Source: Methanolacinia paynteri (GTDB taxonomy: Archaea; Halobacteriota; Methanomicrobia; Methanomicrobiales; Methanomicrobiaceae). Taken from it: a stretch of DNA of 32,000 nt. Position numbers and translations under genes: made by a program. Below the pieces are notes generated by a model. That model had not been told where the DNA came from and ran no database searches. It was given only the letters and a program-made list of their open reading frames with translations. The stretch covers positions 190,836 to 222,835 of the forward strand of contig NZ_KN360931.1 in NCBI RefSeq assembly GCF_000784355.1, in the 5' to 3' direction. Below are positions 12,084 through 32,000 of this stretch, piece by piece; position 1 is the stretch's first letter; the number at the start of each line of letters is the position of its first letter.

Positions 12084-12085
12084 GA

Positions 12086-12442: not shown

Positions 12443-12448
12443 ATCGTC

Positions 12449-13348: not shown

Positions 13349-13363
13349 CTCAGTTTCATTTCA

Positions 13364-14569
13364 TCATTTCATTTTGTCGTCAGCATTCCATACTCCCCAA
13401 AGGGCAAGACCGAAGCCGTCTGTGCTGTAATTTTGATCGTCTATGGTGTCGCTCACCGGACGGAGCCAAAGTTTCTCTGCAATATCTTTTGGATCTCCGG
13501 TTGTTACTTCAAAGAAGTACACGGAGCCTGCCGGGACAAGACGCCGTATTGGTTTTGGTCCTTTCTTTTGAAGATCCCAGCCTGAAAGCGGTTTCCAGCG
13601 GCCTACACATGCCGATTTCAGTGTTAAAGTGAATTTTTGCTCAATATTTTCAGGTAGTCCCGGTGGTGTACCGCAGAGTGTTTCTTTGTCCAGCCAGCCC
13701 GGCAGCCATCCGTTTGAAAAGACCGCAGGTGTTGCAAGGATCATCCTGGCATATTTTTTACCTTCAAGAGCACCGGTGATCTCACCCGGACACTCCCATC
13801 CCGGATCTCTTCCGGATTCCCAAAAGGCAAGGCGTCGTTCACCTCCGATGGGGTGGAACGAATTCTTCCAGATAAAATCTTTTGTATCTACTCTTGCAGC
13901 AATCCTGACATCTCCCGCACCGAAATCCAGGCCAATTGTTTCAAAAAGCCTCCCTTCATCTGAGGTTCCTGTATCGGGTTTAATCTGAACATGGATTCTT
14001 GATTCTTTCTCCGGTAAATCGATGTATCCTGAATCCGGATCTACCTTTTTTCCGCCTTTTTTAGTTTTCAGGGGAACTTTAAACGAGTCGGGGGAATCAT
14101 GTGCAAGCCATTCCGCCATCTTTTTTAAGGACCAGAACTGAGCGATCTCCGCCGGTTTGAAATCATCGCCAACGCTTTCCGGGATCATTGCCGGCAAGAG
14201 TTTTTCATCCGGAAGGTTGCACCATTCGTTGTCCCCGGTTTTTGAAGGACGGATCGGATAAACGGCAGGTTCATTCTTATCAGTATCGTTAACAACTATG
14301 TCGAGGGGTGCCGGAAGATACAGACTTTCAATATTATTCTTATTGTATAGCGGCAGCGGTCCGGAAACCGAGACTTTTTTGAGTTTGGCAACTGTAACAG
14401 GATCAAAGCCATTTCCGTTCATTTTACCCAGCATTGTTCTTACGGAGCCGGCCAGAACGGACGGGTACGGCCAGTCAAGAGATTTCATGCGAATGCCTAA
14501 CCCGAAAGGACGGGCATCCCGTGCAATGATTGGATCATGGGGATCGATAGATAGATGGATTTCACTCAT
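13364..14569 (-). CDS. cmr3: Cmr3
   Basis: IDPHDPIIARDARPFG at the N-terminus and IGGERRLAF are typical of Cmr3. Overlaps cas10 by 4 nt. Confidence 0.85.
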   Translation of the reverse strand: MSEIHLSIDPHDPIIARDARPFGLGIRMKSLDWPYPSVLAGSVRTMLGKMNGNGFDPVTVAKLKKVSVSGPLPLYNKNNIESLYLPAPLDIVVNDTDKNEPAVYPIRPSKTGDNEWCNLPDEKLLPAMIPESVGDDFKPAEIAQFWSLKKMAEWLAHDSPDSFKVPLKTKKGGKKVDPDSGYIDLPEKESRIHVQIKPDTGTSDEGRLFETIGLDFGAGDVRIAARVDTKDFIWKNSFHPIGGERRLAFWESGRDPGWECPGEITGALEGKKYARMILATPAVFSNGWLPGWLDKETLCGTPPGLPENIEQKFTLTLKSACVGRWKPLSGWDLQKKGPKPIRRLVPAGSVYFFEVTTGDPKDIAEKLWLRPVSDTIDDQNYSTDGFGLALWGVWNADDKMK

Positions 14570-16389
14570 AAATTGTCACCACCTGTCGCCGCAGAAGCAA
14601 TACGGCTCGCAATGATGATTTCTTTTGCCCTCCGGTGAAGAGTTTCTGCAGAGTCTACTCCTTCCATGATCTTCCGGATATTTTCACCCGAGATCTCTGT
14701 TGTTCCGTGGCCTGCGGATTTGCGTTTGAGGAGCCTCGACAGATCTTTTTCAAGCAGTTCTGCGGGTGGCGGGCTGCCCCACTCTTTGTATTCCCTGGTC
14801 ATTTGCAGCATTTCATGCCCGGCTTTGTCGGGGATCTCGTCTTTTTTATGCATACCGGTCCATTCGTCAAGGCGTTCATCCATACTGTTATTCCCGGGTT
14901 CTTTCCATTGTTCCCTGATCTTTAACGGTTCTCCGCCGCTTCTTGTATGCAGGTGAAGTGCCAGACCGTTTCTGTCCGGTTTTTTTGCCGCTTTTTCAGC
15001 TTGGCGGCCGTAATCGAGAAGGTCTTCAAGAGGATCGTTTTTGTGTCCTATGGCAATCCCGACAGAAAATGTAAGTCCTTCGACTGTCTTTCCAAATTCG
15101 TCATGAAGTGCCCGTGCCGCCTTCAGGCATGTATCTACAGGGAGAAAGGCGATCACATCGTCTCCGCCGGAATAGACCATGACTCCATGATAATCCTTTT
15201 CAACGATTTCTCTGGCTTTTCCGGCGAACGCTGACAATTTTTCAGAGAATTTATAATGTTCGTTCGAGGATTCAATATTGGCAATTGCCCTTCCCATATG
15301 ATCCCCGTCGGCAATCAGGATTGCAAAATAAGGATTTGGTTCGCCGATTTTTCTCTTGCTTCCCTGAATTTCCAAATCTTTAAGTTTCCGGAGTTTTCCT
15401 TCAATTTTTAAAAGATTGCCGAGATCATCATTAAATTCGCTGGATTTTCTCTGGTCTTCGGGGATTTTGGTTAAATCTTTTTTAAATTCATTTAACCGGG
15501 GGAGATAGCAGACCTGTCCGTCGTACGGGAAATCGGAATAGTGCCTGTTTCCGGTACCTGATGAAAAACTGTTGTCGCCCCTGCACTGGCTGCCTATTTC
15601 ATCAAGTAATTCCCCTGCTTCTCCGCCTTCGGCTACAATTCTTCGTACCCACGGGTCAAGGGCAACCCTGGTAACTGACGGAAAAGCCATCTTTCTTCCG
15701 CCTGCAAGTCTTTTGGTAAGGCCGATTGCAGATAGCTGCTCGCCGTCACTGAGACGCATTCTTAATTCAAGAATTCCCAAATTTTTTCGTTTCTCTTTCA
15801 GTACGCTTTCGCGTGCACCGTCGAGGGAGCATTTAGGAATTCCGGGTACTCCTTTTACCTGTTCAAAATCCCGTATGGATTTTCTGCCTGCAAGGAGCCT
15901 GATCACTCTTTTTCTGGCTATGCGATAATCGTCTTCATTTTCCAGAGGGACCCATGCGGAGTTGAATTCTATAAGATCTTCTACCTGTTCTTTCCAGAGT
16001 ATGTCTCCTGTCGGATCATCTCTTATGACACCTTTTGCTTCTTTTTTGGCAGCTTCGGCATAATTCAGCCAGATATCTTTTGCTGCGGTTTCTGCTTTTT
16101 CATTAATTTCTTCAGGGTCTCCTCCTCTTTCAGGCAGTTTTGCAAGAATCACGTTTCCTATATTGAATGAATCCAATTCATGACCGCGATTTGTAGGTTC
16201 CAGTTCAGGATCACTTTTTTTTAATGCAGGAAAGATCAATTCTCCTCCAGAATCTGCTATGGCTTTTGCCGCCGCCCTGCTGATCTCTGAGAGAAGATAT
16301 GAGCCGAACCACAGATCGCGTGTCCGGCGGGCGGACGCGATGAAGTCCTGTACCGGTCCGACTGACAGGACATACAGGTATTTTGTCAT
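14566..16389 (-). CDS. cas10: Cas10/Cmr2 large subunit lacking an HD domain, with cyclase GGDD motif intact
   Basis: Begins directly with YLYVLSVGPVQDFIASARRTRDLWFGSYLLS, which is the post-HD region of Cmr2. ILIADGDHMG and VYSGGDDVIAFLP are Palm motifs. Only 607 aa. Confidence 0.9.
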   Translation of the reverse strand: MTKYLYVLSVGPVQDFIASARRTRDLWFGSYLLSEISRAAAKAIADSGGELIFPALKKSDPELEPTNRGHELDSFNIGNVILAKLPERGGDPEEINEKAETAAKDIWLNYAEAAKKEAKGVIRDDPTGDILWKEQVEDLIEFNSAWVPLENEDDYRIARKRVIRLLAGRKSIRDFEQVKGVPGIPKCSLDGARESVLKEKRKNLGILELRMRLSDGEQLSAIGLTKRLAGGRKMAFPSVTRVALDPWVRRIVAEGGEAGELLDEIGSQCRGDNSFSSGTGNRHYSDFPYDGQVCYLPRLNEFKKDLTKIPEDQRKSSEFNDDLGNLLKIEGKLRKLKDLEIQGSKRKIGEPNPYFAILIADGDHMGRAIANIESSNEHYKFSEKLSAFAGKAREIVEKDYHGVMVYSGGDDVIAFLPVDTCLKAARALHDEFGKTVEGLTFSVGIAIGHKNDPLEDLLDYGRQAEKAAKKPDRNGLALHLHTRSGGEPLKIREQWKEPGNNSMDERLDEWTGMHKKDEIPDKAGHEMLQMTREYKEWGSPPPAELLEKDLSRLLKRKSAGHGTTEISGENIRKIMEGVDSAETLHRRAKEIIIASRIASAATGGDNL

Positions 16390-17759
16390 TTCGGAACCTC
16401 CTGAAATCCGTTTTCTTCAGCATATGCGAGGAAAGCTTCGAGAGCAGAACCTGGATGCTTCCCCCCACGGGAAAATCTCATAGGAGAGTTTGGATAAGCG
16501 GCATTTGCTGTATTAACGATATCATTATAAGATAATGAGACACCTGTGGTTAGATCGTGCTTTCCCGGTTTTAGATAAGCTGAATCAAGCGGATTTGTTT
16601 TTAATCTCAGAATAAGCGATTTGCACCCGTTTTGGTATTTGATTGGTTTCAGAATTAATGGACTGGCCATCCTGTCATTTTTCTCATTCGGTTGCAGAGT
16701 TGGTTTAATGTTATCATCATCGGTATTATTTCCAATATACTCATCTTTAAGTTCAAAAATAATCGGCATCCCAAACTCTGCACGGGGAAATGATTTAACT
16801 GTTATACGGTTATCAGTCTTTTTCCTCCCCTTGGGACGTATTTTTAATCCATTCTGGTTTTGAATTGTTTCACGAATTGTTTCGGGCTCCGGCCAAAAAG
16901 ATTTACTATAAACATTTCTCCCAACTTTTCCCTGCCTGAAATCTTTCATTCCTCCTACAACGTCGGACCAGCATTTTAAAGGGTCAATCTGATTATTTGT
17001 ATTAATACGGAGTTTTTCTGGTAATGTAGGCCAGGATTTTGGAGTATTTTTATCGATCTGGTATTTTTTAAGGGAATCCGAGTACCATTTACCAATATCA
17101 TCATCCGGGGGAGCAAATTCCTTACAGTATAAAGCACCGCACCCTCTTCGTGTCCTTGCCCCGATCCCCCCAAAATTGACCCATGCCCAGAAAGCCGCTT
17201 CAATATCATTCTCGATTGGATCAATTCTCTCCGGCTTGTGTTCTTTTTTTTGCTGTATTAATTTTTCATTTTCAATTTTTCTTAGTTCATTGAGTCTTTT
17301 TTCTTTTAACCAGCTGATGATAACTGTAAAATTAAAATTTTCTTTTATTAACTCGGCCTCACCTGCCTTTGCAGAAAAGAGTGCATAAACCTCTGGTCCA
17401 TATCTGAAAAAACCGTAATCCGGAGGAGAACGGTATTGGATTTCCTTAGGCTGTACAACTTCAATGATCACCGGGCTGGGATTATCCGTCGTTCCCCAGA
17501 TCTCGCCTTCTCTCTGCCGCAGGTCCTGTTCATTATTGTAGTTCGCTCCTCTGGTAGCCCGCCACCAGAACCGGAGATGACCGCGAACACTTGACGCCCT
17601 TATCGGCATAGCCGGGTCAGCTATTCCTGCTTCAGCTCCCCCTCCGAACATCGGGGTTATTACTTCGATCTCGTATATTTTTGTCTCAATATCCGGATCA
17701 TCTTTTTTTTCAGGAATCACTTTTGGAAATTCAGGTAATTTTCTTGTAATTTGAATCAC
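16386..17759 (-). CDS. cmr1: Cmr1 (RAMP)
   Basis: EIEVITPMFGGGAE...PIRASSVRGHLRFWWRA is the Cmr1 signature. GTG start, exact start uncertain. Confidence 0.85.
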   Translation of the reverse strand: MIQITRKLPEFPKVIPEKKDDPDIETKIYEIEVITPMFGGGAEAGIADPAMPIRASSVRGHLRFWWRATRGANYNNEQDLRQREGEIWGTTDNPSPVIIEVVQPKEIQYRSPPDYGFFRYGPEVYALFSAKAGEAELIKENFNFTVIISWLKEKRLNELRKIENEKLIQQKKEHKPERIDPIENDIEAAFWAWVNFGGIGARTRRGCGALYCKEFAPPDDDIGKWYSDSLKKYQIDKNTPKSWPTLPEKLRINTNNQIDPLKCWSDVVGGMKDFRQGKVGRNVYSKSFWPEPETIRETIQNQNGLKIRPKGRKKTDNRITVKSFPRAEFGMPIIFELKDEYIGNNTDDDNIKPTLQPNEKNDRMASPLILKPIKYQNGCKSLILRLKTNPLDSAYLKPGKHDLTTGVSLSYNDIVNTANAAYPNSPMRFSRGGKHPGSALEAFLAYAEENGFQEVPK

Positions 17760-17839
17760 TCTCCTTAACTATCGAATTTAATCACTCCTTTGATTTCAAC
17801 TGAGAACTCTTTCCTGCAATCGAGGTTTCAAAAAATTTC

Positions 17840-18730
17840 TCATGCTTTTGCACTTGCGACATAAAAACCTCCGAAACCGTATGTCGTGTTCTTTCCGATC
17901 TGCAGATACTCCCCCGCTTTCAGGATCGTTCCAAGTCCGGGATCTACACCCGACGTATCATAAGTTATCGATCCGGTGATCCCGGTGAAGACGATGTTCT
18001 TCTTCTCCCTGTTTTTCCTGGAATGCACGAGGATCGAATTCGTCCTGATATCGAAATCCAGTATTTCCGGATAATTGTCAAATTCGAGATCTTCGACATG
18101 GAGAGGATAATTTCCAGGATCGTACTTCTTCGCGGTCCTGTTGAATGAGCGAAGCGAGGCAGTGACCAGTGCGGAAAAAGCGGGAAGCTGCATAAGCCTG
18201 CCTTTCTCAAAAAGAGCTGTCGGAGTTATGAAATTAACCGTGGTCGAGTCCCCGAGGTTATACTCCGGAATTTCATTCATCGTTCTTGCCTGGATACCGC
18301 CGATCTCGTATTTGCAGCCGTTGAAGTTGTAGACGCCCTCCTTTTCATAAAGAGAGGATAATACCGAAGGCACGTACTTCCTGCGATCGCCGTGGATCTT
18401 CAGAAAACCGGTAACGAGATCTTCGTTCTTAAACGAAAGGACTGCGTAGGGCTTGATATCGTTATCGGCTTTGTAAATACGGGAATATGCCGAATCTTCG
18501 GTATCAGGTTCGCAATAGTTGTCCTGGTTGAATTTCAATGCATGACCCAGAAATCCCCGGAAAATATCTCCGCAGAATTCGGGAGCGGCGTCGTTTCTTA
18601 AATTAATATCAACAGTAATTATCGAACTGTTGAAAGCCGGGTTTGTTCGCTGAACGTTTTTTTGTTTTATCTGTATGACATATACCCCCTGAAGAATATT
18701 TTTTCCTTTTAAGTGGATGTGCATAAACAT
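17840..18730 (-). CDS. cas6: Cas6 crRNA-processing endoribonuclease
   Basis: RAMP-type C-terminal G-rich loop IGKNTTYGFGGFYV. First gene of the cmr operon. The start could be one of the two ATGs in MFMHIH. Confidence 0.75.
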   Translation of the reverse strand: MFMHIHLKGKNILQGVYVIQIKQKNVQRTNPAFNSSIITVDINLRNDAAPEFCGDIFRGFLGHALKFNQDNYCEPDTEDSAYSRIYKADNDIKPYAVLSFKNEDLVTGFLKIHGDRRKYVPSVLSSLYEKEGVYNFNGCKYEIGGIQARTMNEIPEYNLGDSTTVNFITPTALFEKGRLMQLPAFSALVTASLRSFNRTAKKYDPGNYPLHVEDLEFDNYPEILDFDIRTNSILVHSRKNREKKNIVFTGITGSITYDTSGVDPGLGTILKAGEYLQIGKNTTYGFGGFYVASAKA

Positions 18731-18835
18731 TTCGATTTGAATCCGCGATCGTTTTAGTCCGCATAACTAACGCAGCCGGCACTCCGATCATGAGACCTGG
18801 GTGCATTATCATGTGATTTGCAATGAAAAAGAGAG

Positions 18836-19035
18836 ATGAACGAGATAATTTTCATCGTATGCGCATGAGTCGTCTGATAACGTGCGTTGCTGCAGGGCCG
18901 GAGATGCTTTCGTAAGCCGCATGAAGATCTCAAGATCGTCTTCTGATAATTCCGGTATGCAAAGCCTGTCATGAAAAAATCGTTTCAGTTAACGATCATT
19001 TCCCCGAAGAAGAGCAGGATTATCTTGTAATATGA
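18836..19035 (+). pseudogene. cas2 remnant (internally deleted and frameshifted) preceding leader 2
   Basis: 18921-19035 (atgaagatc[tcaa]gatcgtcttctgataattccggtatgcaaagcctgtcatgaaaaaatcgtttcagttaacgatcatttccccgaagaagagcaggattatcttgtaatatga) is near-identical to the cas2 3' end at 22813-22920, apart from a 4-nt insertion. Similarity upstream to 18836 is weaker (MNEIIFIV versus MDNYRLIV). Confidence 0.65.
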
Positions 19036-19055
19036 TCTTCATCACGACATTTTCT

Positions 19056-19098
19056 GCGGTGATCTTTATAAAGGATCATCGGATGATCCGATCACCGC
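19056..19098. repeat. Leader palindrome A, array 2
   Basis: gcggtgatctttataaaggatcatcggatgatccgatcaccgc. The inner arm is extended to 8 bp (GGATCATC/GATGATCC). Confidence 0.85.
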
Positions 19099-19157
19099 AA
19101 AAATGAAAAAACGGAGTCAGCTCCTGCCTTCTTTTGCCCTGTTTCGGAGGGTCACCT

Positions 19158-19200
19158 GCGGTGATCTTTATAAAGGATCTCCGACAGATCCGATCACCGC
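19158..19200. repeat. Leader palindrome B, array 2
   Basis: gcggtgatctttataaaggatctccgacagatccgatcaccgc. Starts 102 nt after palindrome A and ends 64 nt before the first repeat. Confidence 0.85.
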
Positions 19201-19264
19201 AAAGTTTGAAAAAACGGAGCATGCAGGAGCCGACAGAAATCTTTTTCTCAGAGAAAGGCATACT

Positions 19265-20048
19265 GTTGCAATGTCACCCGCAATTAGAAGGGTATGGAAA
19301 CAAGAATCATGCAGAGCAAGATTACAAGACGAAGCCTTAAGTTGCAATGTCACCCGCAATTAGAAGGGTATGGAAACTTCATCTATCTTCTTTAAGACAA
19401 TTATTGGCATCATGTTGCAATGTCACCCGCAATTAGAAGGGTATGGAAACAAAGGTATAGATCGGTAGGTTCCCCGTCCTTTTCAAAGTGTGTTGCAATG
19501 TCACCCGCAATTAGAAGGGTATGGAAACCTCAATCTCGCTGTTGGGAACAGCTACAGTTTTTCGTTGCAATGTCACCCGCAATTAGAAGGGTATGGAAAC
19601 AGTTGCAGAATCAATTTTCTCGCACTCCATTCTCAAAAGTTGCAATGTCACCCGCAATTAGAAGGGTATGGAAACTCTTGAATATCTTCCGACGTTGCGT
19701 GGGGAATTACTTCGTTGCAATGTCACCCGCAATTAGAAGGGTATGGAAACACCTGCGCAATGCGTTCCACATATACCTATTTTCATATTAGTTGCAATGT
19801 CACCCGCAATTAGAAGGGTATGGAAACTTTTAAAATACGTCTCTTCTATCTCTAAACTCATTCAATCGTTGCAATGTCACCCGCAATTAGGAGGGTATGG
19901 AAACAAAAGAAGTCGTGCAGCGTTATTGGCGAGGTTGATACGTTGCAATGTCACCCGCAATTAGAAGGGTATGGAAACTGTCAATGTTCTTTATAATTTC
20001 ACTACTCTTTTGTTGCAATGTCACCCGCAATTAGAAGGATTCCTTTTT
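19265..20048 (+). CRISPR. CRISPR array 2: 11 repeats (10 spacers); the last repeat is abruptly truncated after nt 27
   Basis: Repeat starts: 19265, 19341, 19414, 19492, 19564, 19639, 19714, 19791, 19868 (A>G variant), 19942, 20012. Spacers are 39, 36, 41, 35, 38, 38, 40, 40, 37 and 33 nt. Confidence 0.97.
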
Positions 20049-20059
20049 TACCAAAAAAG
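20043..20059 (+). terminator. T6 run within an A/T hairpin (CTTTTTT-ACC-AAAAAAG) right after the truncated last repeat; possible pre-crRNA terminator
   Basis: Oligo-T tracts act as archaeal terminators. The perfect 7-bp inverted repeat is seen directly in the sequence. Confidence 0.35.
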
Positions 20060-20133
20060 CAGGAAAAAAGTATTCACACAAGTCCGTGATTTTTCCCGAA
20101 ATGCTTTTTTAATAATTACGAAAATTAATTCTT

Positions 20134-21564
20134 ATGGCTGCTATTGTGTATCTGTCAAAGGAAGACCTGGATTCATTATGGGACATGATAAACTGGCAGA
20201 AAGTACGGAAAATCGTATCAAGAACCCAGATAAAAATTGCAAAGGCAGCTAATGAACACAATATAGGGAAAATTAATGAATTCCAGGATAAACTGGTTCA
20301 TTCATTTCCTGCAAAGCTGCTTGCAGTCAGAATTGTAACGGAAAATGAGGGCGGGGATAACGCGGGAGTTGACGGAATTATCTGGGATAAAGATGAAGAA
20401 TGCATGCATGCCGCATGCACCCTGGACACTGACAATTATAATGCAAAACCTCTTCTAAGAATAATGATTCCCAAACCCGGAAAGGATGAGATGAGGCCGA
20501 TATCACTTCCGGTTATGTATGACCGTGCAATACAGGCACTTTTCGCCCTTGCTCTTCAGCCGGTCTCAGAGACATGGGCCGATAAAAGATCTTTCGGATT
20601 CAGAAAGTATCGTTCGACAAAGGATGCTTCATCGTATATCAAATCTCTTTTGGACCACAAAAATTCGGCCGAATGGATACTTGAAGGGGATATAAAATCC
20701 TGCTTCGATAAAATATCGCACGACTGGCTTTTGGAAAATATACCGATGGATAAAAAAATACTTTCAGAATTTTTGAAGGCTGATTATATCTACCAGGACC
20801 AGAGATTCAGGACATCTGAAGGTGTCCCCCAGGGTGGAGTGATCTCCCCCTTTCTGGCAAATATGGCACTTGACGGTATGGAGGATTTTCTGGAGACAAA
20901 ATTTTCCGGAAGAAAAGTCCATCTTGTCAGATATGCCGATGATTTCATCGTCACTGCCGATACTTCTGATACGGCACTGGAAGTTAAGGACAAATTGGAG
21001 GAGTTTTTAAGCATAAGAGGATTGCACCTTTCCGAAACAAAAACCAGAGTTGCCGGTGTCAGTGACGGTTTTGATTTTCTTGGATGGTCTTTCAGAAAAA
21101 CCGACAACAGAGTTGTAATTACACCTTCTGAAAAATCCGTTCAGGGAATCATGGCCAGACTCTCGGAAGAGATCATGAATTCCAAATCCGGAAATCCCGA
21201 TCAATTAATCGGGAGATTAAATCCTGTCATTCGCGGTTGGGCGGAATATAATAATCATATCAACTCCAATGCTGCTTTTGAAGAACTGGATCGTTATTTG
21301 TTTGATGAATTGATGAAATGGGTTCAGAACGCCAGTACAAAGACAAACCGGGGGGATATAATGGATAAGTCCTTTGAATTTCTCTGTGAGGGTGAATGGA
21401 TCTTCTGCGGGGGAAATGAAAAACTTTTGAGATTTACGGATACTAAATTTTATTATCATCCTCCGCTGAAACTCGATGCAAATCCGTATCTTGAGAAAGG
21501 ATACTTTACAGAGAGAAAAAGATCTGATAAGTGTGAGCTGTATATTGATGATTATTATCAATAA
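20134..21564 (+). CDS. Group-II-intron-type reverse transcriptase with maturase/thumb (X) domain, CRISPR-associated, not fused to Cas1
   Basis: RT motifs: RPISLPVMYDRAIQALFALAL, GVPQGGVISPFLANMAL, and the catalytic VRYADDFIV. X-domain: LNPVIRGWAEYNNH. No En domain. Lies 85 nt after array 2 and 78 nt before cas1. Confidence 0.9.
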   Translation: MAAIVYLSKEDLDSLWDMINWQKVRKIVSRTQIKIAKAANEHNIGKINEFQDKLVHSFPAKLLAVRIVTENEGGDNAGVDGIIWDKDEECMHAACTLDTDNYNAKPLLRIMIPKPGKDEMRPISLPVMYDRAIQALFALALQPVSETWADKRSFGFRKYRSTKDASSYIKSLLDHKNSAEWILEGDIKSCFDKISHDWLLENIPMDKKILSEFLKADYIYQDQRFRTSEGVPQGGVISPFLANMALDGMEDFLETKFSGRKVHLVRYADDFIVTADTSDTALEVKDKLEEFLSIRGLHLSETKTRVAGVSDGFDFLGWSFRKTDNRVVITPSEKSVQGIMARLSEEIMNSKSGNPDQLIGRLNPVIRGWAEYNNHINSNAAFEELDRYLFDELMKWVQNASTKTNRGDIMDKSFEFLCEGEWIFCGGNEKLLRFTDTKFYYHPPLKLDANPYLEKGYFTERKRSDKCELYIDDYYQ

Positions 21565-21642
21565 CCGGCTCCTTTTGTCTTGTAAAACCCAAGTAAGAAT
21601 TCATAGAAAAAATTATGTTTTCATTTTTCAATTATCTTCATC

Positions 21643-22623
21643 ATGGAGACTGTTCTTGTTACCGGGAGGGGTGTAAAGATTGGAAGGCATAACAAAATGC
21701 TATACTTTTCCGAGCGAGATAAGAAAGAAAGATCAATATCTCCAATAGATCTGGATCTTATTATTTTAAGCGGAGAATTTTCAATATCTTCAGGTGCAAT
21801 AAGACTTTTGTCTTCGCATGATGCCGGAATTGTCGTTCTGGACAATTATGGGAGACCCATCGGTCATTTCTTACCTGCAAGAAAGAGCAAAGTAATCGAA
21901 AATTATGAAATGCAACGCTCTCTCCCCTCTAAAAAATCACTCGGGATTGCAAAAGAGATCTGTCGGACTTCCGGAAGAAACAAGATTGCCTTGCTAAGAT
22001 CGGTTGGCAGGAATAAAGGAATAGATTGCAAAGATATAATGTCATCTATTCAGTGTAAAATTGAATTGATAGATGAAATCACGAGTAAAAATGTTCTCCT
22101 TGGAATTGAGGGCATCACAGGAAGATTATATTATGAAGGATTAAAACTCCTGTTGCCGGAGGATGCCGGCTTCAGTCACAGGAACAGGCATCCCCCGTGT
22201 GATCCGGTAAATGCACTCCTCTCGTACGGATACGGGATACTATATTCTCATATCAGAAGAGCAGTGGTAACGGCGGGTTTATCACCTTATTATGGTATCC
22301 TGCATTCCTCGTATAAAAAACAGGAGGCCCTTGTCTATGATTTGATTGAAGAGTTCCGCCAGCCTGTTGTCGACCGGGTCGTCCTGACTCTCTTTAATAA
22401 AAATCAAGTGGGGATGAATGATTTTTCAATTGAATCGGGGAAATGCACAATAAATTCACAGGCGAAACGAATTTTTTCTTCCGAGATAATGAGCCGTTTA
22501 AATTCCGGTTACCTGTACAAATCCGTGCATTTAAAATTTAATGATATTATCAGAGAACAGGCAGTTTTAATGCAGAAGGCCATTGCCGGAGAATGTGATT
22601 ACTTTGCTTTCAGGTACAGGTAG
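21643..22623 (+). CDS. cas1: Cas1 integrase
   Basis: NALLSYGYGILYSHIRRAVVTAGLSPYYGILHS....ALVYDLIEEFRQPVVDRVV. Confidence 0.92.
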   Translation: METVLVTGRGVKIGRHNKMLYFSERDKKERSISPIDLDLIILSGEFSISSGAIRLLSSHDAGIVVLDNYGRPIGHFLPARKSKVIENYEMQRSLPSKKSLGIAKEICRTSGRNKIALLRSVGRNKGIDCKDIMSSIQCKIELIDEITSKNVLLGIEGITGRLYYEGLKLLLPEDAGFSHRNRHPPCDPVNALLSYGYGILYSHIRRAVVTAGLSPYYGILHSSYKKQEALVYDLIEEFRQPVVDRVVLTLFNKNQVGMNDFSIESGKCTINSQAKRIFSSEIMSRLNSGYLYKSVHLKFNDIIREQAVLMQKAIAGECDYFAFRYR

Positions 22624-22632
22624 GTTTTTGAA

Positions 22633-22920
22633 ATGGATAATTATCGACTGATCGTCAGTTACGATATAACCGATGACAAGAAGCGAAACGAAATGGTTGA
22701 GCATCTCCATTACATGGGATTATTTAGGATACAATATAGTGTCTTTGCAGGATTCGTGCCACGGAAAAGGTATGACTGCCTTGTTTCAGGCTGCATGGAG
22801 TGGTGCAGCACAGATGAAGATCGTCTTCTGATAATTCCGGTATGCAAAGCATGTCATGAAAGAATAGTTTCAGTTAACGATCATTTCCCCGAAGAAGAGC
22901 AGGATTATCTTGTAATCTGA
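22633..22920 (+). CDS. cas2: Cas2
   Basis: YRLIVSYDITDDKKRNEMVEHLHYMGLFRIQYSVFAG. 95 aa. Lies immediately upstream of leader 3. Confidence 0.9.
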   Translation: MDNYRLIVSYDITDDKKRNEMVEHLHYMGLFRIQYSVFAGFVPRKRYDCLVSGCMEWCSTDEDRLLIIPVCKACHERIVSVNDHFPEEEQDYLVI

Positions 22921-22940
22921 TCTTCATCACGACATTTTCT

Positions 22941-22983
22941 GCGGTGATCTTTATAAAGGATCTTTGAGAGATCCGATCACCGC
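22941..22983. repeat. Leader palindrome A, array 3
   Basis: gcggtgatctttataaaggatctttgagagatccgatcaccgc. Confidence 0.85.
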
Positions 22984-23042
22984 AAAAATGAAAAAACAAA
23001 GCCTGTTCCTGCCTTCTTTTGGCAGGTTTCGGAGGGTCACCT

Positions 23043-23085
23043 GCGGTGATCTTTATAAAGGACCTTTGAGAGATCCGATCACCGC
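23043..23085. repeat. Leader palindrome B, array 3
   Basis: gcggtgatctttataaaggacctttgagagatccgatcaccgc. Ends 64 nt before the first repeat. Confidence 0.85.
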
Positions 23086-23149
23086 AGAATTTGAAAAAAC
23101 GAAGCATGCAGGAGCCGACAGAAATCTTTTTCTCAGAGAAAGGCATACT

Positions 23150-24062
23150 GTTGCAATAACACCCGCAATTAGAAGGGTATGGAAACATTTCGTGCTCTAT
23201 CTCCATTCTCCCCCTTTCGCAAGAGTTGCAATAACACCCGCAATTAGAAGGGTATGGAAACAGATAGAGGATGGCTAGCAGACCATCTTTCCAGAATTGT
23301 TGCAATAACACCCGCAATTAGAAGGGTATGGAAACTTGAAGACATTGTTCTGAGGATCTCGTCTATACGCTGTTGCAATAACACCCGCAATTAGAAGGGT
23401 ATGGAAACTATTGCATCTTTCTTTCCTTTGTCCAGATTCTTATCGTTGCAATAACACCCGCAATTAGAAGGGTATGGAAACCGAATCCGCCACCATCCAT
23501 TATTTTGGTTCCGTCATGGTTGCAATGTCACCCGTAATTAGAAGGGTATGGAAACAATTATTACAATATTGTATATAGTATAACCTACAGTTGCAATGTC
23601 ACCCGTAATTAGAAGGGTATGGAAACTTCTCCGGGCGTTGAAGGCATCTATGTCTTCATGTTGCAATGACACCCGTAATTAGAAGGGTATGGAAACTTAT
23701 TCTCGGTCCCAAATAGTGACCTTGACATTTTCTTGCAATGACACCCGCAATTAGAAGGGTATGGAAACGTAAAACAACTTCAATGCCGAGCTCTTCTAAA
23801 ACCCTTGCAATGACACCCGCAATTAGAAGGGTATGGAAACAATTCTTGAGGGATGTTCATCCCATTCTTTCTTTACTTGCAATGACACCCGCAATTAGAA
23901 GGGTATGGAAACATAGATTATCTTCTTGACGATCTGGTACTTTATTTCAGTTGCAATGTCACCCGCAATTAGAAGGGTACGGAAATCCCGGTCATATAAA
24001 GAGCGTTAAGAACCTGGGATTGTTTGTTGCAATATCACCTGTTTTTATAAGTTCACGAGAAT
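23150..24062 (+). CRISPR. CRISPR array 3: 13 repeats (12 spacers) in blocks of repeat variants; the last repeat is degenerate
   Basis: Repeat starts: 23150, 23225, 23299, 23372, 23445 (GCAATAACACCCGC). 23519, 23590 (GCAATGTCACCCGT). 23660 (GCAATGACACCCGT). 23732, 23804, 23876 (CTTGCAATGACACCCGC). 23950 (..GGGTACGGAAAT). 24026 (degenerate). Spacers are 33-39 nt. Confidence 0.97.
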
Positions 24063-24285
24063 TTCAGGAGAGAATTCTGTTTTTGGAATCTTCCATGAGG
24101 GTGGGGAACATATCGATTTCGTGAATATATTTTAGTCCTGGGAATTTCAGAATGCCGTAGGCGAAATAATCAAAGAAATGAGAATAAAACAAAAAAAACC
24201 TGAACCTTATATAATAATGCTGTCAGTGAGTTCCACTATCATTGTCAGAATGCTAAAGGTGGAGAATCTCCACCAAAAGTAAAAA

Positions 24286-24399
24286 TGCTGTCGACGGGAT
24301 CCGAACCCGTGACCTCCAGATATCTCAGATATCAAGCGCCCCGAAATGTGCTACAAAACCCTATGAGTCTGGCGCCCTAACCGACTAGGCCACGACAGC
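24286..24399 (-). tRNA. tRNA with CAU anticodon (elongator Met or Ile2) carrying an intron of about 40 nt after position 37
   Basis: The reverse complement folds as acceptor GCTGTCG/CGACAGC, D arm GCCT-AGTCGGTTA-GGGC, and anticodon stem CCAGA/TCTGG with loop CTCATA. The intron lies at about 24322-24361. Variable region AGGTC, T arm ACGGG-TTCGGAT-CCCGT, discriminator A, then TTTTT. The mature length is 74 nt and no CCA is encoded. Confidence 0.85.
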
Positions 24400-24536
24400 A
24401 TGTGAATTTTTTTCGTCGGTTATTCGCACAACAAAGTGCATAATAAAAAGGACGGATACGCTATTAAACCTTATGATATGACTACCGGAGATAACATCAT
24501 GCAGTTTTTTCCCTTAAAAAAGCGAATATCAGATAC

Positions 24537-25718
24537 ATGAAATTTATGTTCTCGAGAAGGATTCAGAACACCCCGAAATCCTTCATACGCGAGATACTCA
24601 AGGTTACGGAAAACCCCGACGTTATCTCCTTCGCCGGCGGTCTTCCAAACCCTTCCTTAATCGACACCGAAGGGATCGGGAAGGCCGCATCGGATATCAT
24701 AAAAAGCGACGGCAGGTCCGCCCTCCAGTACTCAACCACCGAAGGATACGAACCCCTGAGACAATATATCGCCGACCGCTACGCGAAGAGATACAATCTC
24801 GACGTCAGCGCCGACGAGATCCTGATAACAAACGGCTCGCAGCAGTGCCTCGATCTTCTCGGGAAAGTATTCATCAACCAGGGAGACACCGTCCTGATGG
24901 AAAAACCCGGATACCTCGGTGCGATCCAGTCCTTCTCTCTCTACGAACCCGAATTCCATTCAGTCTCCCTCCATGACGACGGCCCCGACACCGTAGAGCT
25001 CTCGTCCGTATTATCCGAAGAACTTCCGGTCTTCTTCTACGGCATACCCAACTCCCAGAACCCAACCGGCATAACATACTCCGACGAAAAGAGAAAAGAA
25101 GTCGCAGAAATCCTCAACGAAGCCGAAGTTCCGTTCATCGAAGACGACGCCTACGGGGAGCTCCGCTTCGACGGAAAAGCCATAAAACCGGTCAAATATT
25201 ACATGCCCGAAGCAGGCATAATGACAGGCTCCTTCTCCAAGATATTCTCGCCAGGGATGAGGCTCGGCTGGGTCTGTGCAACTCCCGAAGTCCTCGACAA
25301 GGTCATAATCGCAAAGCAGGCATCCGACCTCCACTCGAACTATCTCAGCCAGAGAATCCTGTACAAGTATCTCGAAGAGAACAACATCGACAAACATATC
25401 GAAAAGATACAATCCGAATATAAGATGCGGGCTGACCTCATGGTCAAAACGATCCGCTCGGAATTCCCCCCCGAGATCACCTGCACTCAGCCCGAAGGCG
25501 GAATGTTCGTCTGGCTCCGCTTCCCCGACAACATGTCCTCTATGAAGATATTCGAAAAGGCCTCGGAGAAAAATGTCGTCATACTCCCGGGAATGCCGTT
25601 CTACGTCGACGGAAAAGGAGACAAAACGGCGAGGCTCAACTTCACGAATTCGGACGAAGAAGAGATCAAATACGGAATCGGGGTAGTGGCAGAGGTAATA
25701 AAAGAGTTGTATTACTGA
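24537..25718 (+). CDS. PLP-dependent aminotransferase, class I/II (AspC/LysN-like)
   Basis: SFIREILKV..ISFAGGLPNP, NPTG, and the PLP-lysine motif SFSKIFSPGMRLGW. Confidence 0.8.
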   Translation: MKFMFSRRIQNTPKSFIREILKVTENPDVISFAGGLPNPSLIDTEGIGKAASDIIKSDGRSALQYSTTEGYEPLRQYIADRYAKRYNLDVSADEILITNGSQQCLDLLGKVFINQGDTVLMEKPGYLGAIQSFSLYEPEFHSVSLHDDGPDTVELSSVLSEELPVFFYGIPNSQNPTGITYSDEKRKEVAEILNEAEVPFIEDDAYGELRFDGKAIKPVKYYMPEAGIMTGSFSKIFSPGMRLGWVCATPEVLDKVIIAKQASDLHSNYLSQRILYKYLEENNIDKHIEKIQSEYKMRADLMVKTIRSEFPPEITCTQPEGGMFVWLRFPDNMSSMKIFEKASEKNVVILPGMPFYVDGKGDKTARLNFTNSDEEEIKYGIGVVAEVIKELYY

Positions 25719-25719
25719 T

Positions 25720-26709
25720 TCAGAATGCCAGTGATGTAACCGTAAGAACAGCAATAAACAATATAATCAGGGCAATTGTCCTTTTCACAAATTTTTTTGC
25801 AACCCTTGCTTCCGATCCCGTTCTTGGCGCAACTCCTATAATCAACGTTCCGATAAGTGCGCCTGCGATAAGCCCGATCACGTTATCCAGTGTAAGAAGA
25901 AGTGCTCCGGTGATCGCGTCGGGGATCATGATAATTGAAATTCCTGCGACAACAGTCGGGGGAAGCAAGGCTGCTGCAACCGCAACTCCGGCGATGGACT
26001 CGGAAAAACCCTTTGAAACAGCTATCATCGAGGCAAGACCCAGCAGAACCGCCATGAGAATATATATCGGGCTCGTAGTCGTCCTGAGAAGGATCTCCTG
26101 TGTTATCTCAAGGGTATAAAGACCTGCCTGCATCGATACCTCCATCAGGTTCAGCGTGTAAGTCGCTACTACCGATACGAATAATATCGTGACAAGGTAG
26201 ATGAAAAGAGCAAAAACGCTCATTAAAGCATCCTTCGTTCTCCCCGTTGCGCCGTAGATCGCAAAAGAGTGGATCGGCCCGAGAATCGGTGCAAGGAGCA
26301 TCGCCCCGATAATAATCGCCACATTATTCAGGAAGAGGCCCGTAAGCGCAATAAGTCCGGCGATCGTTGTCAGGAGAAGAATCCAGTAATCGATCGAATT
26401 ATAATTCTTCGCCGAATTAAGCAGCAGCTCCACGGGAGTTTTTTCGTGCTTTGGGGCAGTCTTCTCCGCCCGTGAAAGAGTGGACGAGATGACAAAATCC
26501 GGGGTGGAAACTTCGATGAGGTTCTCTTTATACCTTAAATCAAGAGGCTCCCGGATTTTGTCAATTATATTGTTAACCTCGGAATCGGGTGCGAATATTT
26601 TGACCTGGACGAAATCCCCCACGTCCACATCTATATGGTAAAGATCCTCCAGCAATGGTTTAAGATTCTTGTAATCCTCATGCCTGGCATGAAGGAGTAT
26701 CTTCTTCAT
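25720..26709 (-). CDS. Integral membrane protein, DUF389/TIGR00341-like (tentative)
   Basis: A soluble N-terminus of about 90 aa is followed by several Gly/Ala-rich hydrophobic helices. The length of 329 aa fits that family. No motif-level proof. Confidence 0.4.
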   Translation of the reverse strand: MKKILLHARHEDYKNLKPLLEDLYHIDVDVGDFVQVKIFAPDSEVNNIIDKIREPLDLRYKENLIEVSTPDFVISSTLSRAEKTAPKHEKTPVELLLNSAKNYNSIDYWILLLTTIAGLIALTGLFLNNVAIIIGAMLLAPILGPIHSFAIYGATGRTKDALMSVFALFIYLVTILFVSVVATYTLNLMEVSMQAGLYTLEITQEILLRTTTSPIYILMAVLLGLASMIAVSKGFSESIAGVAVAAALLPPTVVAGISIIMIPDAITGALLLTLDNVIGLIAGALIGTLIIGVAPRTGSEARVAKKFVKRTIALIILFIAVLTVTSLAF

Positions 26710-26745
26710 AACTATCAGATAACTGTCATGCGATAAAAATAGTTC

Positions 26746-28224
26746 TTATTGTTCTTTTGCCTGCTGAATGTAGACATTTACAGCCGCAGAGATCGCAGCA
26801 GCCTCTTTGCCTCCCCGGAGGGATGCGGCAAGGTTCTGCATACGTGTCTGCTCCTCGCGGAGGTATCTCGAAAGGCTCTTCTGGATATGCTCCTCCTGCA
26901 GGAAATGGGTGTGAGTATCCCCGTTGATGAAGTGAGGGTTTCTCATTATCGCATGATGCAGCGGCAGTGTAGTCCTGACCCCGAGAATGACATACTCGTA
27001 GATCGCCCTTCTCATCCTGTCTATCGACTCCTGCCTGTCGCTTCCCCACGAGCAGAGCTTGGAGATCATCGAGTCGTACATCGGGGGGATCGCATATCCC
27101 ATGTGGATACCCGAATCCACCCTGATTCCCGGGCCTCCCGGAGACCTGTAGCGGACGATCTTTCCGGGATCGGCCGTGAAATTATTCAGCGGATCTTCGG
27201 CATTGATACGGCATTCGATCGCATGGCCGTTGAGCCTGATGTCCTCCTGGGAATGCTGGAGCTCCTCGCCCGCCGCGACCTTAATCTGCTGTTTCACGAT
27301 ATCCATGCCGGTTATCATCTCGGTTACCGTATGCTCGACCTGGAGACGGGTGTTCATCTCCATGAAATAGTAGTTCCCCTCGCTGTAGAGGAACTCGACG
27401 GTTCCTGCATTGTAGTAGCCCGAAGCCTCGGCCACCTTCAGTGCGGACTCCGACATCCTCTCGCGGAGTTCGTCGGTCATTATCGGGCACGGGGCCTCTT
27501 CGACCAGTTTCTGGTGGCGTCTCTGTATAGAGCACTCCCTGTCATAGAGATGCACCCTGTTGCCATGCTTGTCGCAGAGGACCTGGAACTCGATATGCCG
27601 CGGTTTCACGAGATACTTCTCGATGAAGACCGTCGAATCACCGAAAGCCGATTCGGCGATCCTCATACCCTTCTCGATCGCGTTTTCGAGCTCCTCTTCG
27701 TTCTCGACGATCTGCATCCCTATGCCGCCGCCGCCTGCGCTCGCCTTGACGATCACCGGATACCCGATGTCCTTTGCGACTCTCTTTGCCTCGGTGATAT
27801 CTTTGACGCCGTCATGGGTGTACGGGAGAACCGGAACGCCGGCCTTGTCCATCATGTGCTTGGAGCCGAGTTTAGACCCCATCGCCTCGATGGACTTCCA
27901 CGAAGGTCCGATGAACGTCAGCCCTTCTTCTTCGCAGTATTTGGCAAATTTTGAATTTTCAGCAAGAAATCCGTACCCCGGGTGGATCGCTTCAGCTCCG
28001 GAACTCTTTGCGATCTTTAAGATACGGTCCATATTGAGATAGCTCTCTTTCGGGGGTGCGGCCCCGAGAAGATAAGCCTCGTCCGCATATTTGACGTGGA
28101 GTGCGTTTCGGTCGGGTTCGGAGAAGACGGCGACCGTCTCTATTCCAAGCTCCCTGCAGCCACGCATTATCCTGATGGCGATCTCGCCCCTGTTGGCAAT
28201 TAAGATCTTGTTGAAATAACTCAT
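26746..28224 (-). CDS. pycA: Pyruvate carboxylase subunit A (biotin carboxylase)
   Basis: [33 protein letters not shown]-grasp motifs, and [15 protein letters not shown] 4-nt overlap joins it to the upstream carboxyltransferase/BCCP gene. Confidence 0.88.
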
Positions 28225-29957
28225 TCAATCACCAGCAAGACGTCACCGCTTTGCACGGTGTCGCCTGCATCGACAAAGATCTGGGTCACCTTCCCGGCCT
28301 TTATCGATTTAATCGGGTTCTCCATCTTCATGGCCTCGAGAACCACAAGAGTGTCTCCCACTTTCACCTCGGCCCCGACACATGTCTCGACCTTGAGCAC
28401 CATTCCCTGCATGTTGCTCTTGACTCCGCCCTTGATGTTCCTCGGGATCTTCTTCTCGCCGATGGATGCGGATGACGTGACCTCACTTCCCTCAACAGAG
28501 AGAATCCTGACAGCGAAGATCTCGCCGTCGACTTCGACCTCCATAAAGCTCGGAATGTTTCCTGAATCCTGCTTCCTGGACTGGGATAAGGTCGGGATCG
28601 TCTCGGCCTTTCTCTCTCCTTTGAGGAACGAAGGCGCTATTGCCGGGTAGAGGATGTATGTCAGGATGTCCTCGTCCTTCTTTACAAGGCCCTCCTCACC
28701 GGCCTCCTTTGCCATAGTCTCGTATACCGGTTCGAGGAGGTCCGCTGGTCTTCCTTCGAACGCCTTCTCACCGTCGATGATCTTCTCGCGGATCTCTTCA
28801 GGGATCGTTCCCGGGGGTTTGCCGTAGAGGCCCCTTACGTAGTCCTTGACCTCCTGCGTGACATTGGAGTATCTCTCCCCGCCCATGAGGACGTTCAGCA
28901 CAGCCTGTGTTCCTACGATCTGGCTCGTCGGGGTGACGAGCGGCGGATATCCCAGATCCTTTCTGACCTTCGGGATCTCGTTATGAACGGATTCGAGTTT
29001 GTCGAGCGCATCCTGCTCCTTGAGCTGCGAGACGAGATTCGAGATCATTCCGCCGGGGAGCTGGTATATCAGGACATCCGAATCGATCCTCTCTGATATC
29101 GGGTCGATAAGCGCCCCGTATTTCTCCCTGACTACAAGGCATTTGATCTTTGCATCCCGGAGGCGCATGAGATCGATGCCTGTATCCCTGTCCGTTCCCT
29201 TCAGGCTTGCAACCACGCTCTCGGTTGCGGGCTGCGAAGTTCCCATTGCAAACGGCGACATGGCCGTATCAAGGATATCTACTCCCGCCTCTATTGCCGC
29301 CTGGTAGCTCATCGGGGCTATTCCGCTTGTCGAATGCGAGTGGAGGTTTACAGGTATGTCGATCCTCTTTTTGATTCCGGCGACGAGATCCGCAGCATCT
29401 TTCGGCATTATTAACCCGGCCATATCCTTGATGCAAACCGAATCGCTGCCTTTAGAATAGAGATCTTCGGCAAGATCTATGAATCCGGCGACCGAGTGAA
29501 CAGGACTTGTCGTGTAGCTTATCGTTCCCTGGAGGTGTGCTCCTATATCCTTTACAACCTCCATGGATTTTTCCATGTTCCTGATGTCGTTTAATGCATC
29601 GAAGACCCTGAATATATCGACCCCGTTTCTTCCGGCGGCCTCGATGAATTTTTCGACTACATCATCGGGGTAATGCTTGTATCCTACCAGGTTCTGGCCG
29701 CGGAGAAGCATCTGGACCTTTGTGTTTTTCATCTCGGCCTTGATATCGCGGAGCCTCTGCCAGGGATCGTCGTTCAGGTACCGTATGCAACTGTCAAAAG
29801 TGGCGCCTCCCCAGGCCTCTACCGAAAAAAAACCTATTTTATCTAATTGTCTTGCAACAGGGATCAGATCCTCGGTCCTAAGGCGTGTAGCGATTAAGGA
29901 TTGATGTGCATCCCTGAGGGTAGTATCTGTTATTTTTACAGTATTGGCAACGCTCAT
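28221..29957 (-). CDS. pycB: Pyruvate carboxylase subunit B (carboxyltransferase + biotin carboxyl carrier domain)
   Basis: [13 protein letters not shown] (HMGL-like/oxaloacetate decarboxylase alpha-type TIM barrel) and a C-terminal biotinyl site EAMKMEN. Confidence 0.88.
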
Positions 29958-30022
29958 AAATTTCCTCCAAGGAGCCAGGATTGATTAACTATTATTCAGT
30001 CTCTAATAATTTTCTCACCGAA

Positions 30023-30664: not shown

Positions 30665-30683
30665 ACCTGATTTCTCCTGTCCG

Positions 30684-31253: not shown

Positions 31254-31256
31254 TTG

Positions 31257-31961: not shown

Positions 31962-32000
31962 CCGCTGATTTTACGCAGTCGCCCGGGATGAAGGGAGCCA

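Follow-up and report, generated by a model that had tools for sequence, protein, structure and literature searches.

The 32,000-nucleotide (nt) stretch of Methanolacinia paynteri DNA analysed here (contig NZ_KN360931.1, positions 190,836 to 222,835; hereafter the window) carries a stand-alone gene for a group II intron-type reverse transcriptase (RT) directly upstream of cas1 and cas2, in a type III-B CRISPR (short palindromic repeats that are clustered and regularly interspaced) locus. We favour, with reasonable but not high confidence, the reading that this RT is a domesticated enzyme of the CL1 intron class, which lost its ribozyme and became fixed in the adaptation module of a horizontally mobile III-B island in the Methanomicrobiales. 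The role of the enzyme would most likely be the conversion of RNA into complementary DNA (cDNA) prespacers for Cas1-Cas2. The genes of the adaptation module are as follows.

20134-21564, plus strand: stand-alone RT gene, 476 amino acids (aa); its regions are RVT_N/RT0, the fingers-palm of RT1-7 and X/thumb (GIIM), followed by a D-like C-terminus that has diverged
21565-21642: RT-cas1 intergenic spacer, 78 nt, in which no DV-DVI remnant was detected
21643-22623, plus strand: cas1, 326 aa (PF01867, E 4.5e-71; TIGR00287)
22633-22920, plus strand: cas2, 95 aa

An earlier reading of the window, made from the letters and predicted open reading frames (ORFs) and hereafter called the sequence-only reading, had described a 476-aa YADD RT devoid of an endonuclease domain and lying 78 nt upstream of cas1. 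Both statements proved exact: the protein has the Pfam domains RVT_N (aa 16-96), RVT_1 (aa 112-319, E 2e-41) and GIIM (aa 339-412), no HNH or other endonuclease domain was found in the Pfam search, and cas1 starts at 21643. The same reading had allowed that the catalytic motifs might turn out to be non-functional, and all of them are present (motif A D186, YADD at aa 267-270, PQGG and FDFLGW). The RT scores 304 bits against the NCBIfam model of group II intron RT/maturases (TIGR04416, cut-off 300). The window Cas1 is a singleton, whose closest relatives are 49-54% identical.

Conserved association of the RT with cas1

A scan of genome and metagenome collections by Cas1 alignment yielded 160 loci, among which the Cas1 clade of the window is linked to an RT wherever upstream DNA is available: all loci with such DNA and a Cas1 at least 51% identical to that of the window have an RT (46-47% identical) directly upstream of cas1. 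These loci, hereafter named CR, are L007, L010 (a Methanomicrobiales metagenome-assembled genome, MAG), L090 and L091; their Cas1 is 51-53% identical to that of the window, their repeats belong to the same family and the guanine-cytosine (GC) content of their hosts spans 11 points (46% and 57%). The complete array / RT-cas1-cas2 / array layout is found in L007, L090 and L091, L010 ending inside cas1. In L090, whose contig ends in cmr3, the minus-strand genes cmr3-cas10-cmr1-cas6 are followed by array / RT-cas1-cas2 / leader-array. Since the identity of the L090 RT to that of the window (46%) is comparable to those of the Cas and Cmr proteins of the same locus (Cmr3 61%, Cas10 60%, Cas1 52%, Cas6 44%, Cmr1 43% and Cas2 42%), the RT has diverged in step with its cas neighbours.

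A second set of loci, hereafter CR2 (L025 from Methanoregula, L095 and L097), has the RT downstream of cas1-cas2. Their Cas1 and RT are 43-44% and 38-40% identical to those of the window, respectively, and their repeats and cmr genes are related; the RT stands inside the locus, 2-6 kb past cas1-cas2, with a ParE-like pair in front of it and a further array behind. The ParE-like toxin gene lies just before the RT (L097:14425-14730, L025:10503-10796), with a small ORF upstream of it. No RT was found in the neighbouring Cas1 clade (Methanospirillum) within flanks of 8 kb on each side, and the bacterial stand-alone RTs of the scan (L134, L151) are 27-28% identical to the window RT. The sequence-only reading had taken the gene for a CRISPR-dedicated, ribozyme-less and catalytically intact RT of a III-B adaptation module; this is borne out by the synteny in four other loci and, as detailed below, by the congruence of the RT and Cas1 trees, the purifying selection on the orthologues and the failure to detect a ribozyme.

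Absence of a ribozyme and relationship to mobile introns

The Rfam search of positions 18700-24600 returned no group II intron family even at E<=10, no intron RNA was found at E<=1 in six related CRISPR loci, and the alignment of the RT-cas1 spacers of the window and the CR loci showed no conservation. As a positive control, the Rfam search finds 16 intron-domain matches around four mobile relatives. The flanks of the RT gene are tight, the distance being 95 nt from its ATG back to a CRISPR repeat and 78 nt from its stop to cas1. A live or mobile group II intron is ruled out by the absence of the DI-DVI ribozyme (Rfam, E<=10, with a working positive control).

Relatives of the RT were searched in a database of 5.8 billion proteins, where the nearest are 46-49% identical; the window RT is a singleton, at most 49% identical to anything, and its cluster holds one member on one contig (32 kb of the host genome being covered). 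The relatives that could be located, P0003 (a Methanoculleus MAG), P0015 and P0042, are 48-49% identical, lie apart from cas genes and are often multicopy, and their introns have group-II-D1D4 upstream and Intron_gpII (DV-DVI) starting 6-10 nt past the stop. The sequence-only reading had held that clustering with bona fide mobile-intron RTs, together with a flanking ribozyme, would speak against a CRISPR role: the nearest relatives are indeed such RTs, and no flanking ribozyme was found.

The mobile relatives occur as many copies on contigs of about 2 kb, as well as in tandem or nested copies. Tandem and nested CL1-type copies were seen at L003:4586-12562 and L005:5491-9686, L003 containing an RT disrupted into two ORFs. 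Intron-in-intron arrangements are reported for Methanosarcina, and the nested copies of L003 and L005 are similar to them.

Ancestry in the CL1 class

Among solved structures, the RT matches best the T.el4h maturase of Thermosynechococcus (6ME0/8FLI; 384 bits over aa 13-464), far above GsI-IIC (110 bits), LtrA (103 bits) and Cas6-RT-Cas1 (7KFT, 79 bits). The AlphaFold model of the RT (mean predicted local distance difference test, pLDDT, 89.7) superposes on T.el4h with a template modelling (TM) score of 0.83-0.89, although it says little on the diverged C-terminus since its alignment is dominated by mobile RTs. In the supplement of Toro et al., the T. elongatus intron RT is labelled class CL1. 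Judged by these comparisons, the RT descends from the CL1 (T.el4h-like, IIB1) intron RTs, a statement on its ancestry and not on its current membership.

The archaeal CRISPR RTs described so far form RT-CRISPR clade 1 / branch 11, known from Methanosarcina and Methanomethylovorans only and sister to class F introns (PMC5541045, PMC6013744, PMC5513706); the branch 11 RT adjoins cas6, in a locus without cas1 (Silas et al. 2017; PMC5513706). A 2021 review counts 15 CRISPR-RT clades, in which archaea are represented by clade 1 alone. As references, the RT0-7 sequences of four clade 1 and two class F members were taken from the Toro supplement. The clade 1 RTs, 48-79% identical to each other, share 31-34% identity with the window RT, and the class F RTs share 30%. 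In a neighbour-joining (NJ) tree of RT0-7, the CL1-type set is separated from class F plus clade 1 in 200/200 bootstraps, and a grouping of the window RT with clade 1 is obtained in 0/200. The Cas1 scan itself contains genuine clade 1 RTs, 58-86% identical to the M. siciliae RT, in Methanosarcina loci; in L064, L067 and L068 they share 29-34% identity with the window RT, in L040, L064, L067 and L068 they occupy the opposite strand at 1-3 kb from cas1, and the Cas1 of the clade 1 loci is 30-34% identical to that of the window.

Membership in clade 1 / branch 11 was thus rejected, on 31-34% identity, 0/200 bootstraps and a host that is neither Methanosarcina nor Methanomethylovorans. The sequence-only reading had identified the RT with unfused RTs of archaea already noted from Methanomicrobia; this identification does not hold, since those RTs are clade 1, of class F intron origin, and the window RT shares 31-34% identity with clade 1 and was never grouped with it. 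The lineage is distinct in intron class (CL1), host order (Methanomicrobiales), Cas1 clade and gene order. No description of a Methanomicrobiales CRISPR RT was found in the literature searched, an earlier description being not fully excluded.

Phylogeny, selection and domain pattern

All trees were built by NJ with gamma-corrected distances. With the full-length sequences aligned, the window, CR and CR2 RTs are monophyletic in 200/200 bootstraps, and in 196/200 when the C-terminus is removed (N-terminus, RT and X kept); the window and CR RTs group in 159/200 on the full-length alignment. In the full-length tree, the CRISPR-linked clade sits within the archaeal mobile CL1 introns, and the Cas1 NJ tree agrees with the RT tree. 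One origin for the window and CR RTs is well supported, because the synteny is identical, the repeats are orthologous, the Cas1 tree is congruent and a rare truncated-repeat/RT junction is shared. CR2 likely belongs to the same domestication event, with less certainty.

Between three CR-clade RT genes, the ratio of nonsynonymous to synonymous substitution rates (dN/dS) is 0.25-0.32 overall, 0.18-0.21 for RT1-7 and 0.30-0.45 for X and the C-terminal part, to be compared with 0.14-0.18 for cas1 of the same loci. These values indicate a CRISPR RT lineage that is under purifying selection and still functional. The identity of the window RT to mobile RTs depends strongly on the domain considered, as follows.

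RT1-7 core: window vs mobile RTs 59%; mobile vs mobile 67%; mobile vs T.el4h 57%
X/thumb: window vs mobile RTs 35%; mobile vs mobile 52%; mobile vs T.el4h 46%
D-like C-terminus: window vs mobile RTs 28%; mobile vs mobile 46%; mobile vs T.el4h 43%

Between the CRISPR-linked lineages, the C-terminus is 14-21% identical. Thirty-two positions conserved at 95% or more in mobile RTs were given up in the CRISPR-linked RTs, most of them in the basic stretch at the N-terminus (aa 3-55) and, within the DNA-binding domain (D), in the KRRHxNK..W..YW motif, which is lost in every CRISPR-linked lineage. Such a pattern is the one expected if the polymerase was kept and the intron-RNA and retrohoming functions were released, and it is unlike random decay.

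CRISPR arrays, leaders and the start of the RT gene

The arrays on both sides of RT-cas1-cas2, reported by the sequence-only reading, were recovered with 37-nt repeats, and a third array, overlooked by Tandem Repeats Finder and by that reading, was found at the distal end of the cmr operon. The cas2 fossil with its leader copy and the truncation of the last repeat of array 1 are likewise absent from that reading.

19265-20038, plus strand: CRISPR array 1, 10 full 37-nt repeats (GTTGCAATGTCACCCGCAATTAGAAGGGTATGGAAAC) and an 11th truncated after nt 27 (...AGAAGG at 20038)
23150-24061, plus strand: CRISPR array 2, 12 repeats of the GTTGCAATGTCACCCGCAATTAGAAGGGTATGGAAAC family and a degenerate terminal repeat
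8243-8510, plus strand: CRISPR array 3, 4 repeats and 3 spacers (one of 49 nt), same repeat
22921-23149, plus strand: leader of array 2, with two copies of a 45-nt palindrome, TTTATAAA core
18932-19264, plus strand: cas2 fossil (last 104 nt of cas2, 18932-19035, stop included) and leader copy (19036-19264)
19048-19092, 19156-19200, 22933-22977 and 23041-23085: palindromes of about 45 nt, TGCGGTGATCTTTATAAAGGATC...GATCCGATCACCGCA, two per leader
20039-20133, plus strand: AT-rich segment of 95 nt from the truncated repeat to the RT ATG, with a TATA-like TTTTTTAATAAT at 20098-20109

The TATA-like element lies about 30 nt upstream of the RT ATG, and the 95-nt segment may be the RT's own promoter. 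The orthologous loci lack this putative promoter segment, their RT ATG being placed within the repeat remnant: in L007, L010, L090 and L091 the RT starts with an ATG at repeat positions 30-32 (...AGAAGGGT/ATG; L010:62-93, L090:6446-6477, L091:294-325 and L007:3808-3839), the window counterpart being 20012-20038, where the terminal repeat is cut 5 nt earlier than in the CR loci. There is consequently no room for a separate RT promoter in the CR loci, the start codon being inside the repeat remnant. The predicted 8-nt handle of the CRISPR RNA (crRNA) is ATGGAAAC, and in these sister loci, where the RT begins at the ATG of this handle, a read-through from the array promoter and a Cas6 cleavage at the handle (GGGT^AUG) would free a leaderless RT-cas1-cas2 mRNA from the array transcript.

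Positions 18932-19264 are about 93% identical to 22817-23149. The leaders of L090 are 79-85% alike and are devoid of a cas2 piece. The leader copy of the window stems from a more recent duplication or conversion, or possibly from a read-through transcript that was retro-copied with a truncated 5' end. The leader palindrome is a candidate promoter, or a candidate site for the binding of an integration host factor-like protein. The repeats of array 2 comprise, from the leader-proximal end, five GTTGCAATAACACCC, then GTCACCCGT, GACACCCGT and CTTGCAATGACACCC and lastly a repeat of the array 1 type, a succession which suggests a stepwise repeat evolution or a recombination between arrays. In L090, one repeat-spacer unit of array 1 is exactly duplicated in tandem (71 nt twice, L090:6081-6222).

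The CRISPR island and its effector genes

The assignment to Methanolacinia is supported by the window PycA, which has 98% identity to its counterpart in Methanolacinia petrolearia DSM 11571, and by the flanks (3663-6823 and 24275-32000), which have 90-96% DNA identity to the M. petrolearia genome. The region between them is an island carrying the entire type III-B system, the three arrays and RT-cas1-cas2. Its GC content is 40-47%, compared with 51-52% in the flanks, and M. petrolearia DSM 11571 lacks it, small ORFs without relation to it filling the same site over about 3 kb. The RT is part of an accessory CRISPR island, probably acquired horizontally by a member of the Methanomicrobiales, since the island is missing from M. 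petrolearia, has a low GC content and is bordered by a tRNA gene.

7946-24274: whole CRISPR island, about 16.3 kb
24286-24399, minus strand: intron-containing tRNA gene at the right island border (Rfam 58 bits, no ARAGORN call)
17840-18730, minus strand: cas6
16386-17759, minus strand: cmr1, in the type III-B effector operon (10926-17759)
14566-16389, minus strand: cas10/cmr2, short (607 aa), no HD domain, GGDD retained at aa 408
13364-14569, minus strand: cmr3
12449-13348, minus strand: cmr4
12086-12442, minus strand: cmr5
10926-12083, minus strand: cmr6
10606-10929, minus strand: Csx16-like accessory gene, end of the cmr operon
8744-10564, minus strand: gene of an HD-domain protein of 606 aa (HD at the C-terminus), operon end

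The type III-B assignment was confirmed by cas10/cmr2 and cmr1, 3, 4, 5 and 6, all matching NCBIfam equivalogs above cut-offs (TIGR02577, TIGR01894, TIGR01888, TIGR02580, TIGR01881 and TIGR01898); cas6 likewise exceeds the cut-off of its NCBIfam equivalog. As the sequence-only reading had it, the RT is on the plus strand, opposite to cas6 and the cmr genes (10926-18730). The effector, whose Cas10 is without HD nuclease and keeps the GGDD cyclase motif, would thus depend on the recognition of target RNA, which fits the proposed conversion of RNA into prespacers. The 606-aa HD protein, whose N-terminal part of about 380 aa has no family match, may be a signal-activated effector replacing the absent HD domain of Cas10; its gene and the Csx16-like gene also adjoin the RT in L095.

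In the left flank of the island, two minimal nucleotidyltransferase genes and a MazE/MazF-like pair were noted (3694-3990, minus strand; 5291-5584, plus strand; 6996-7555, plus strand). The nucleotidyltransferases form an MNT/HEPN-type toxin-antitoxin context, the HepT partner being present in M. petrolearia, and these genes lend the region the character of a small defence and toxin-antitoxin neighbourhood.

Proposed function and alternative explanations

RT-Cas1 systems are known to take up spacers from RNA (PMC5513706, PMC6821258), CRISPR RTs as well as ordinary RTs of group II introns can start DNA synthesis on RNA by de novo priming, the product then being integrated by Cas1-Cas2, and stand-alone CARTs are a recognised architectural class (PMC10415136). 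By analogy, the RT of the window would be expressed with cas1-cas2 or just upstream of them and would copy invader or host transcripts into cDNA, and the resulting DNA would be inserted by Cas1-Cas2 into the flanking arrays, at the repeats nearest to the leader. The RNA-guided and RNA-activated Cmr complex, with its HD-less Cas10 and its cyclase motif kept, would in this way gain spacers against transcribed or RNA-only targets. The RT activity, the RNA origin of the spacers and an action in trans without covalent link to Cas1 are what we infer here. The sequence-only reading had raised the question of how an unfused RT is recruited to Cas1-Cas2; an RT acting in trans may well need no stable complex, which would answer it. 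That all the elements come together, namely an undescribed CL1-derived lineage of the Methanomicrobiales with an RT start welded to the array, a leaderless mRNA released by Cas6, an RT in trans and a self-primed cDNA, is a possibility that we regard as doubtful.

Several observations weigh against adaptation by a single domesticated lineage. The monophyly of the window, CR and CR2 RTs is weak on the RT1-7 core alone (86/200) and falls to 10/200 on RT0-7 with distant outgroups, the long CR2 branch moving toward the root in these weaker analyses, and long-branch attraction is not excluded since the trees are NJ only. The clean shared-derived residues of the CRISPR-linked RTs number two, T55V and I309V, so that their monophyly rests on trees, synteny, repeat family and junction. 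Selection could be measured in the sister clade alone, the window RT being a singleton (at most 49%). The conserved partner of the RT may be the CRISPR locus or its arrays and not Cas1, since the CR2 RT is 2-6 kb away. The 23 spacers gave no significant protospacer in a phage collection, the two leader-proximal spacers gave none in IMG/VR, and all spacers compared with the window and 169 loci gave chance matches of 15-16 nt only. Finally, no spacer-acquisition test of an unfused CRISPR RT was found in the literature searched.

The main alternative, which we consider rather unlikely, is that the RT is linked to CRISPR in another role: cDNA synthesis from crRNA or array transcripts for the maintenance, duplication or homogenisation of the arrays, a defence or abortive-infection RT at the side of the type III system, or a support of the cyclic-oligoadenylate response. 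The RT is always on the array strand and directly downstream of an array, that of CR2 is not beside cas1 but between arrays and next to a toxin-antitoxin pair, and the branch 11 RT of Methanosarcina adjoins cas6 in a locus without cas1 (Silas et al.), all of which would suit such a role. It would also accommodate the 5'-truncated copy of the cas2 3' end and leader before array 1 as a retro-copied read-through transcript, but an ordinary segmental duplication explains this copy as well, L090 having duplicated leaders without cas2. The role in adaptation is favoured over it by the five closest loci, in which the RT is co-oriented with and immediately upstream of cas1-cas2, by the congruent RT and Cas1 trees, and by the scores with the NCBIfam DRT, Abi and retron models, which are far under the cut-offs.

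Two further explanations would make the CRISPR location incidental. A functionless, decaying group II intron remnant that landed beside cas1 by chance would agree with nearest relatives that are mobile CL1 introns of methanogens, with an NCBIfam group II RT/maturase cut-off barely passed (304 vs 300 bits), with the singleton status of the sequence and with the real introns or retrons occasionally present inside CRISPR loci (Toro et al.). This explanation is largely refuted, and we give it very little credit: the 476-aa ORF is intact with complete catalytic motifs, both ribozyme halves are cleanly gone, the arrangement is kept across about 50% protein divergence and in hosts of 46% and 57% GC, the orthologues have a dN/dS of 0.18-0.32, and the loss of residues is domain-specific and not random. 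Equally hard to sustain, and scarcely more probable, is a free-standing maturase that would serve in trans ORF-less group II introns located elsewhere, as the T. elongatus intron RTs do. RVT_N, X/GIIM and a T.el4h-like predicted fold are kept, and introns could exist elsewhere in a genome of which 32 kb are covered; yet the N-terminal basic residues and the D motif, conserved at 95% or more in mobile RTs, were given up, the X domain is 35% identical to those of mobile RTs as against 52% among the latter, and it would be hard to see why the synteny with cas1-cas2 and the arrays is kept in at least 5-8 loci.

Comparison with known systems

CRISPR systems have recruited reverse transcriptases several times, and the domesticated RT proposed here extends this known theme without overturning it. 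A group II-derived RT in type III CRISPR adaptation is a kind of system already known, to which a second archaeal lineage adds an independent origin. To our knowledge, the acquisition of RNA-derived spacers has been proven experimentally in the bacterial RT-Cas1 fusion class only. Such fusions from bacteria, RT-Cas1 or Cas6-RT-Cas1 (Marinomonas mediterranea MMB-1, Vibrio vulnificus and Thiomicrospira 7KFT), resemble the window system by a group II-like RT in a type III adaptation module, whereas the window RT is a separate polypeptide, archaeal, scores 79 bits against 7KFT, and has the full CL1 RT0 and thumb. A separate RT gene beside cas1 is likewise found in the bacterial class of stand-alone CRISPR RTs (clades 9 and 13 of Toro; stand-alone CART of Zabrady et al. 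2023). Toro clades 9 and 13 are bacterial and nearer to class C introns (Toro et al. 2018). The G2L4-type free-standing RTs are, like the window RT, intron-derived, ribozyme-less and domesticated for a host function, but their Foldseek TM score to the model of the window RT is 0.58-0.59; G2L RTs are not CRISPR-linked, and none is reported in archaea (PMC8632793).

The mobile CL1/IIB1 intron proteins (T.el4h; P0003, P0015 and P0042) have the same order of RT0, RT1-7, X and D-like regions and no endonuclease, whereas the window RT is without DI-DVI, is present as a single copy in a cas operon and is co-inherited with cas genes. The persistence of mobile relatives in related hosts shows which parts were kept on repurposing, namely the polymerase core and the thumb, and which were discarded, namely the ribozyme, the DNA-binding motif and the N-terminal basic residues. 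As the RT is unfused and near to the solved T.el4h, it offers a tractable system on whether a coupling to Cas1 is needed or whether self-primed cDNA produced in trans suffices. The start codon embedded in a repeat of the sister loci suggests a link between crRNA processing and the expression of the adaptation genes, which, if true, would be wired to crRNA biogenesis.

The closest known counterpart is clade 1 / branch 11, which is also archaeal, unfused, ribozyme-less, derived from a group II intron and located in type III (Cmr or Csm) loci, and which is regarded as a recent and independent recruitment (Toro et al. 2017/2018; Silas et al. 2017). It differs from the window lineage by its sister group (class F vs CL1), its host order (Methanosarcinales vs Methanomicrobiales), a Cas1 at 30-34% identity and its gene order. 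The RT of the window would represent a separate capture, from a different intron class and in a different methanogen order from the class F offshoot of the Methanosarcinaceae and, if this is true, a second archaeal origin of CRISPR RTs.

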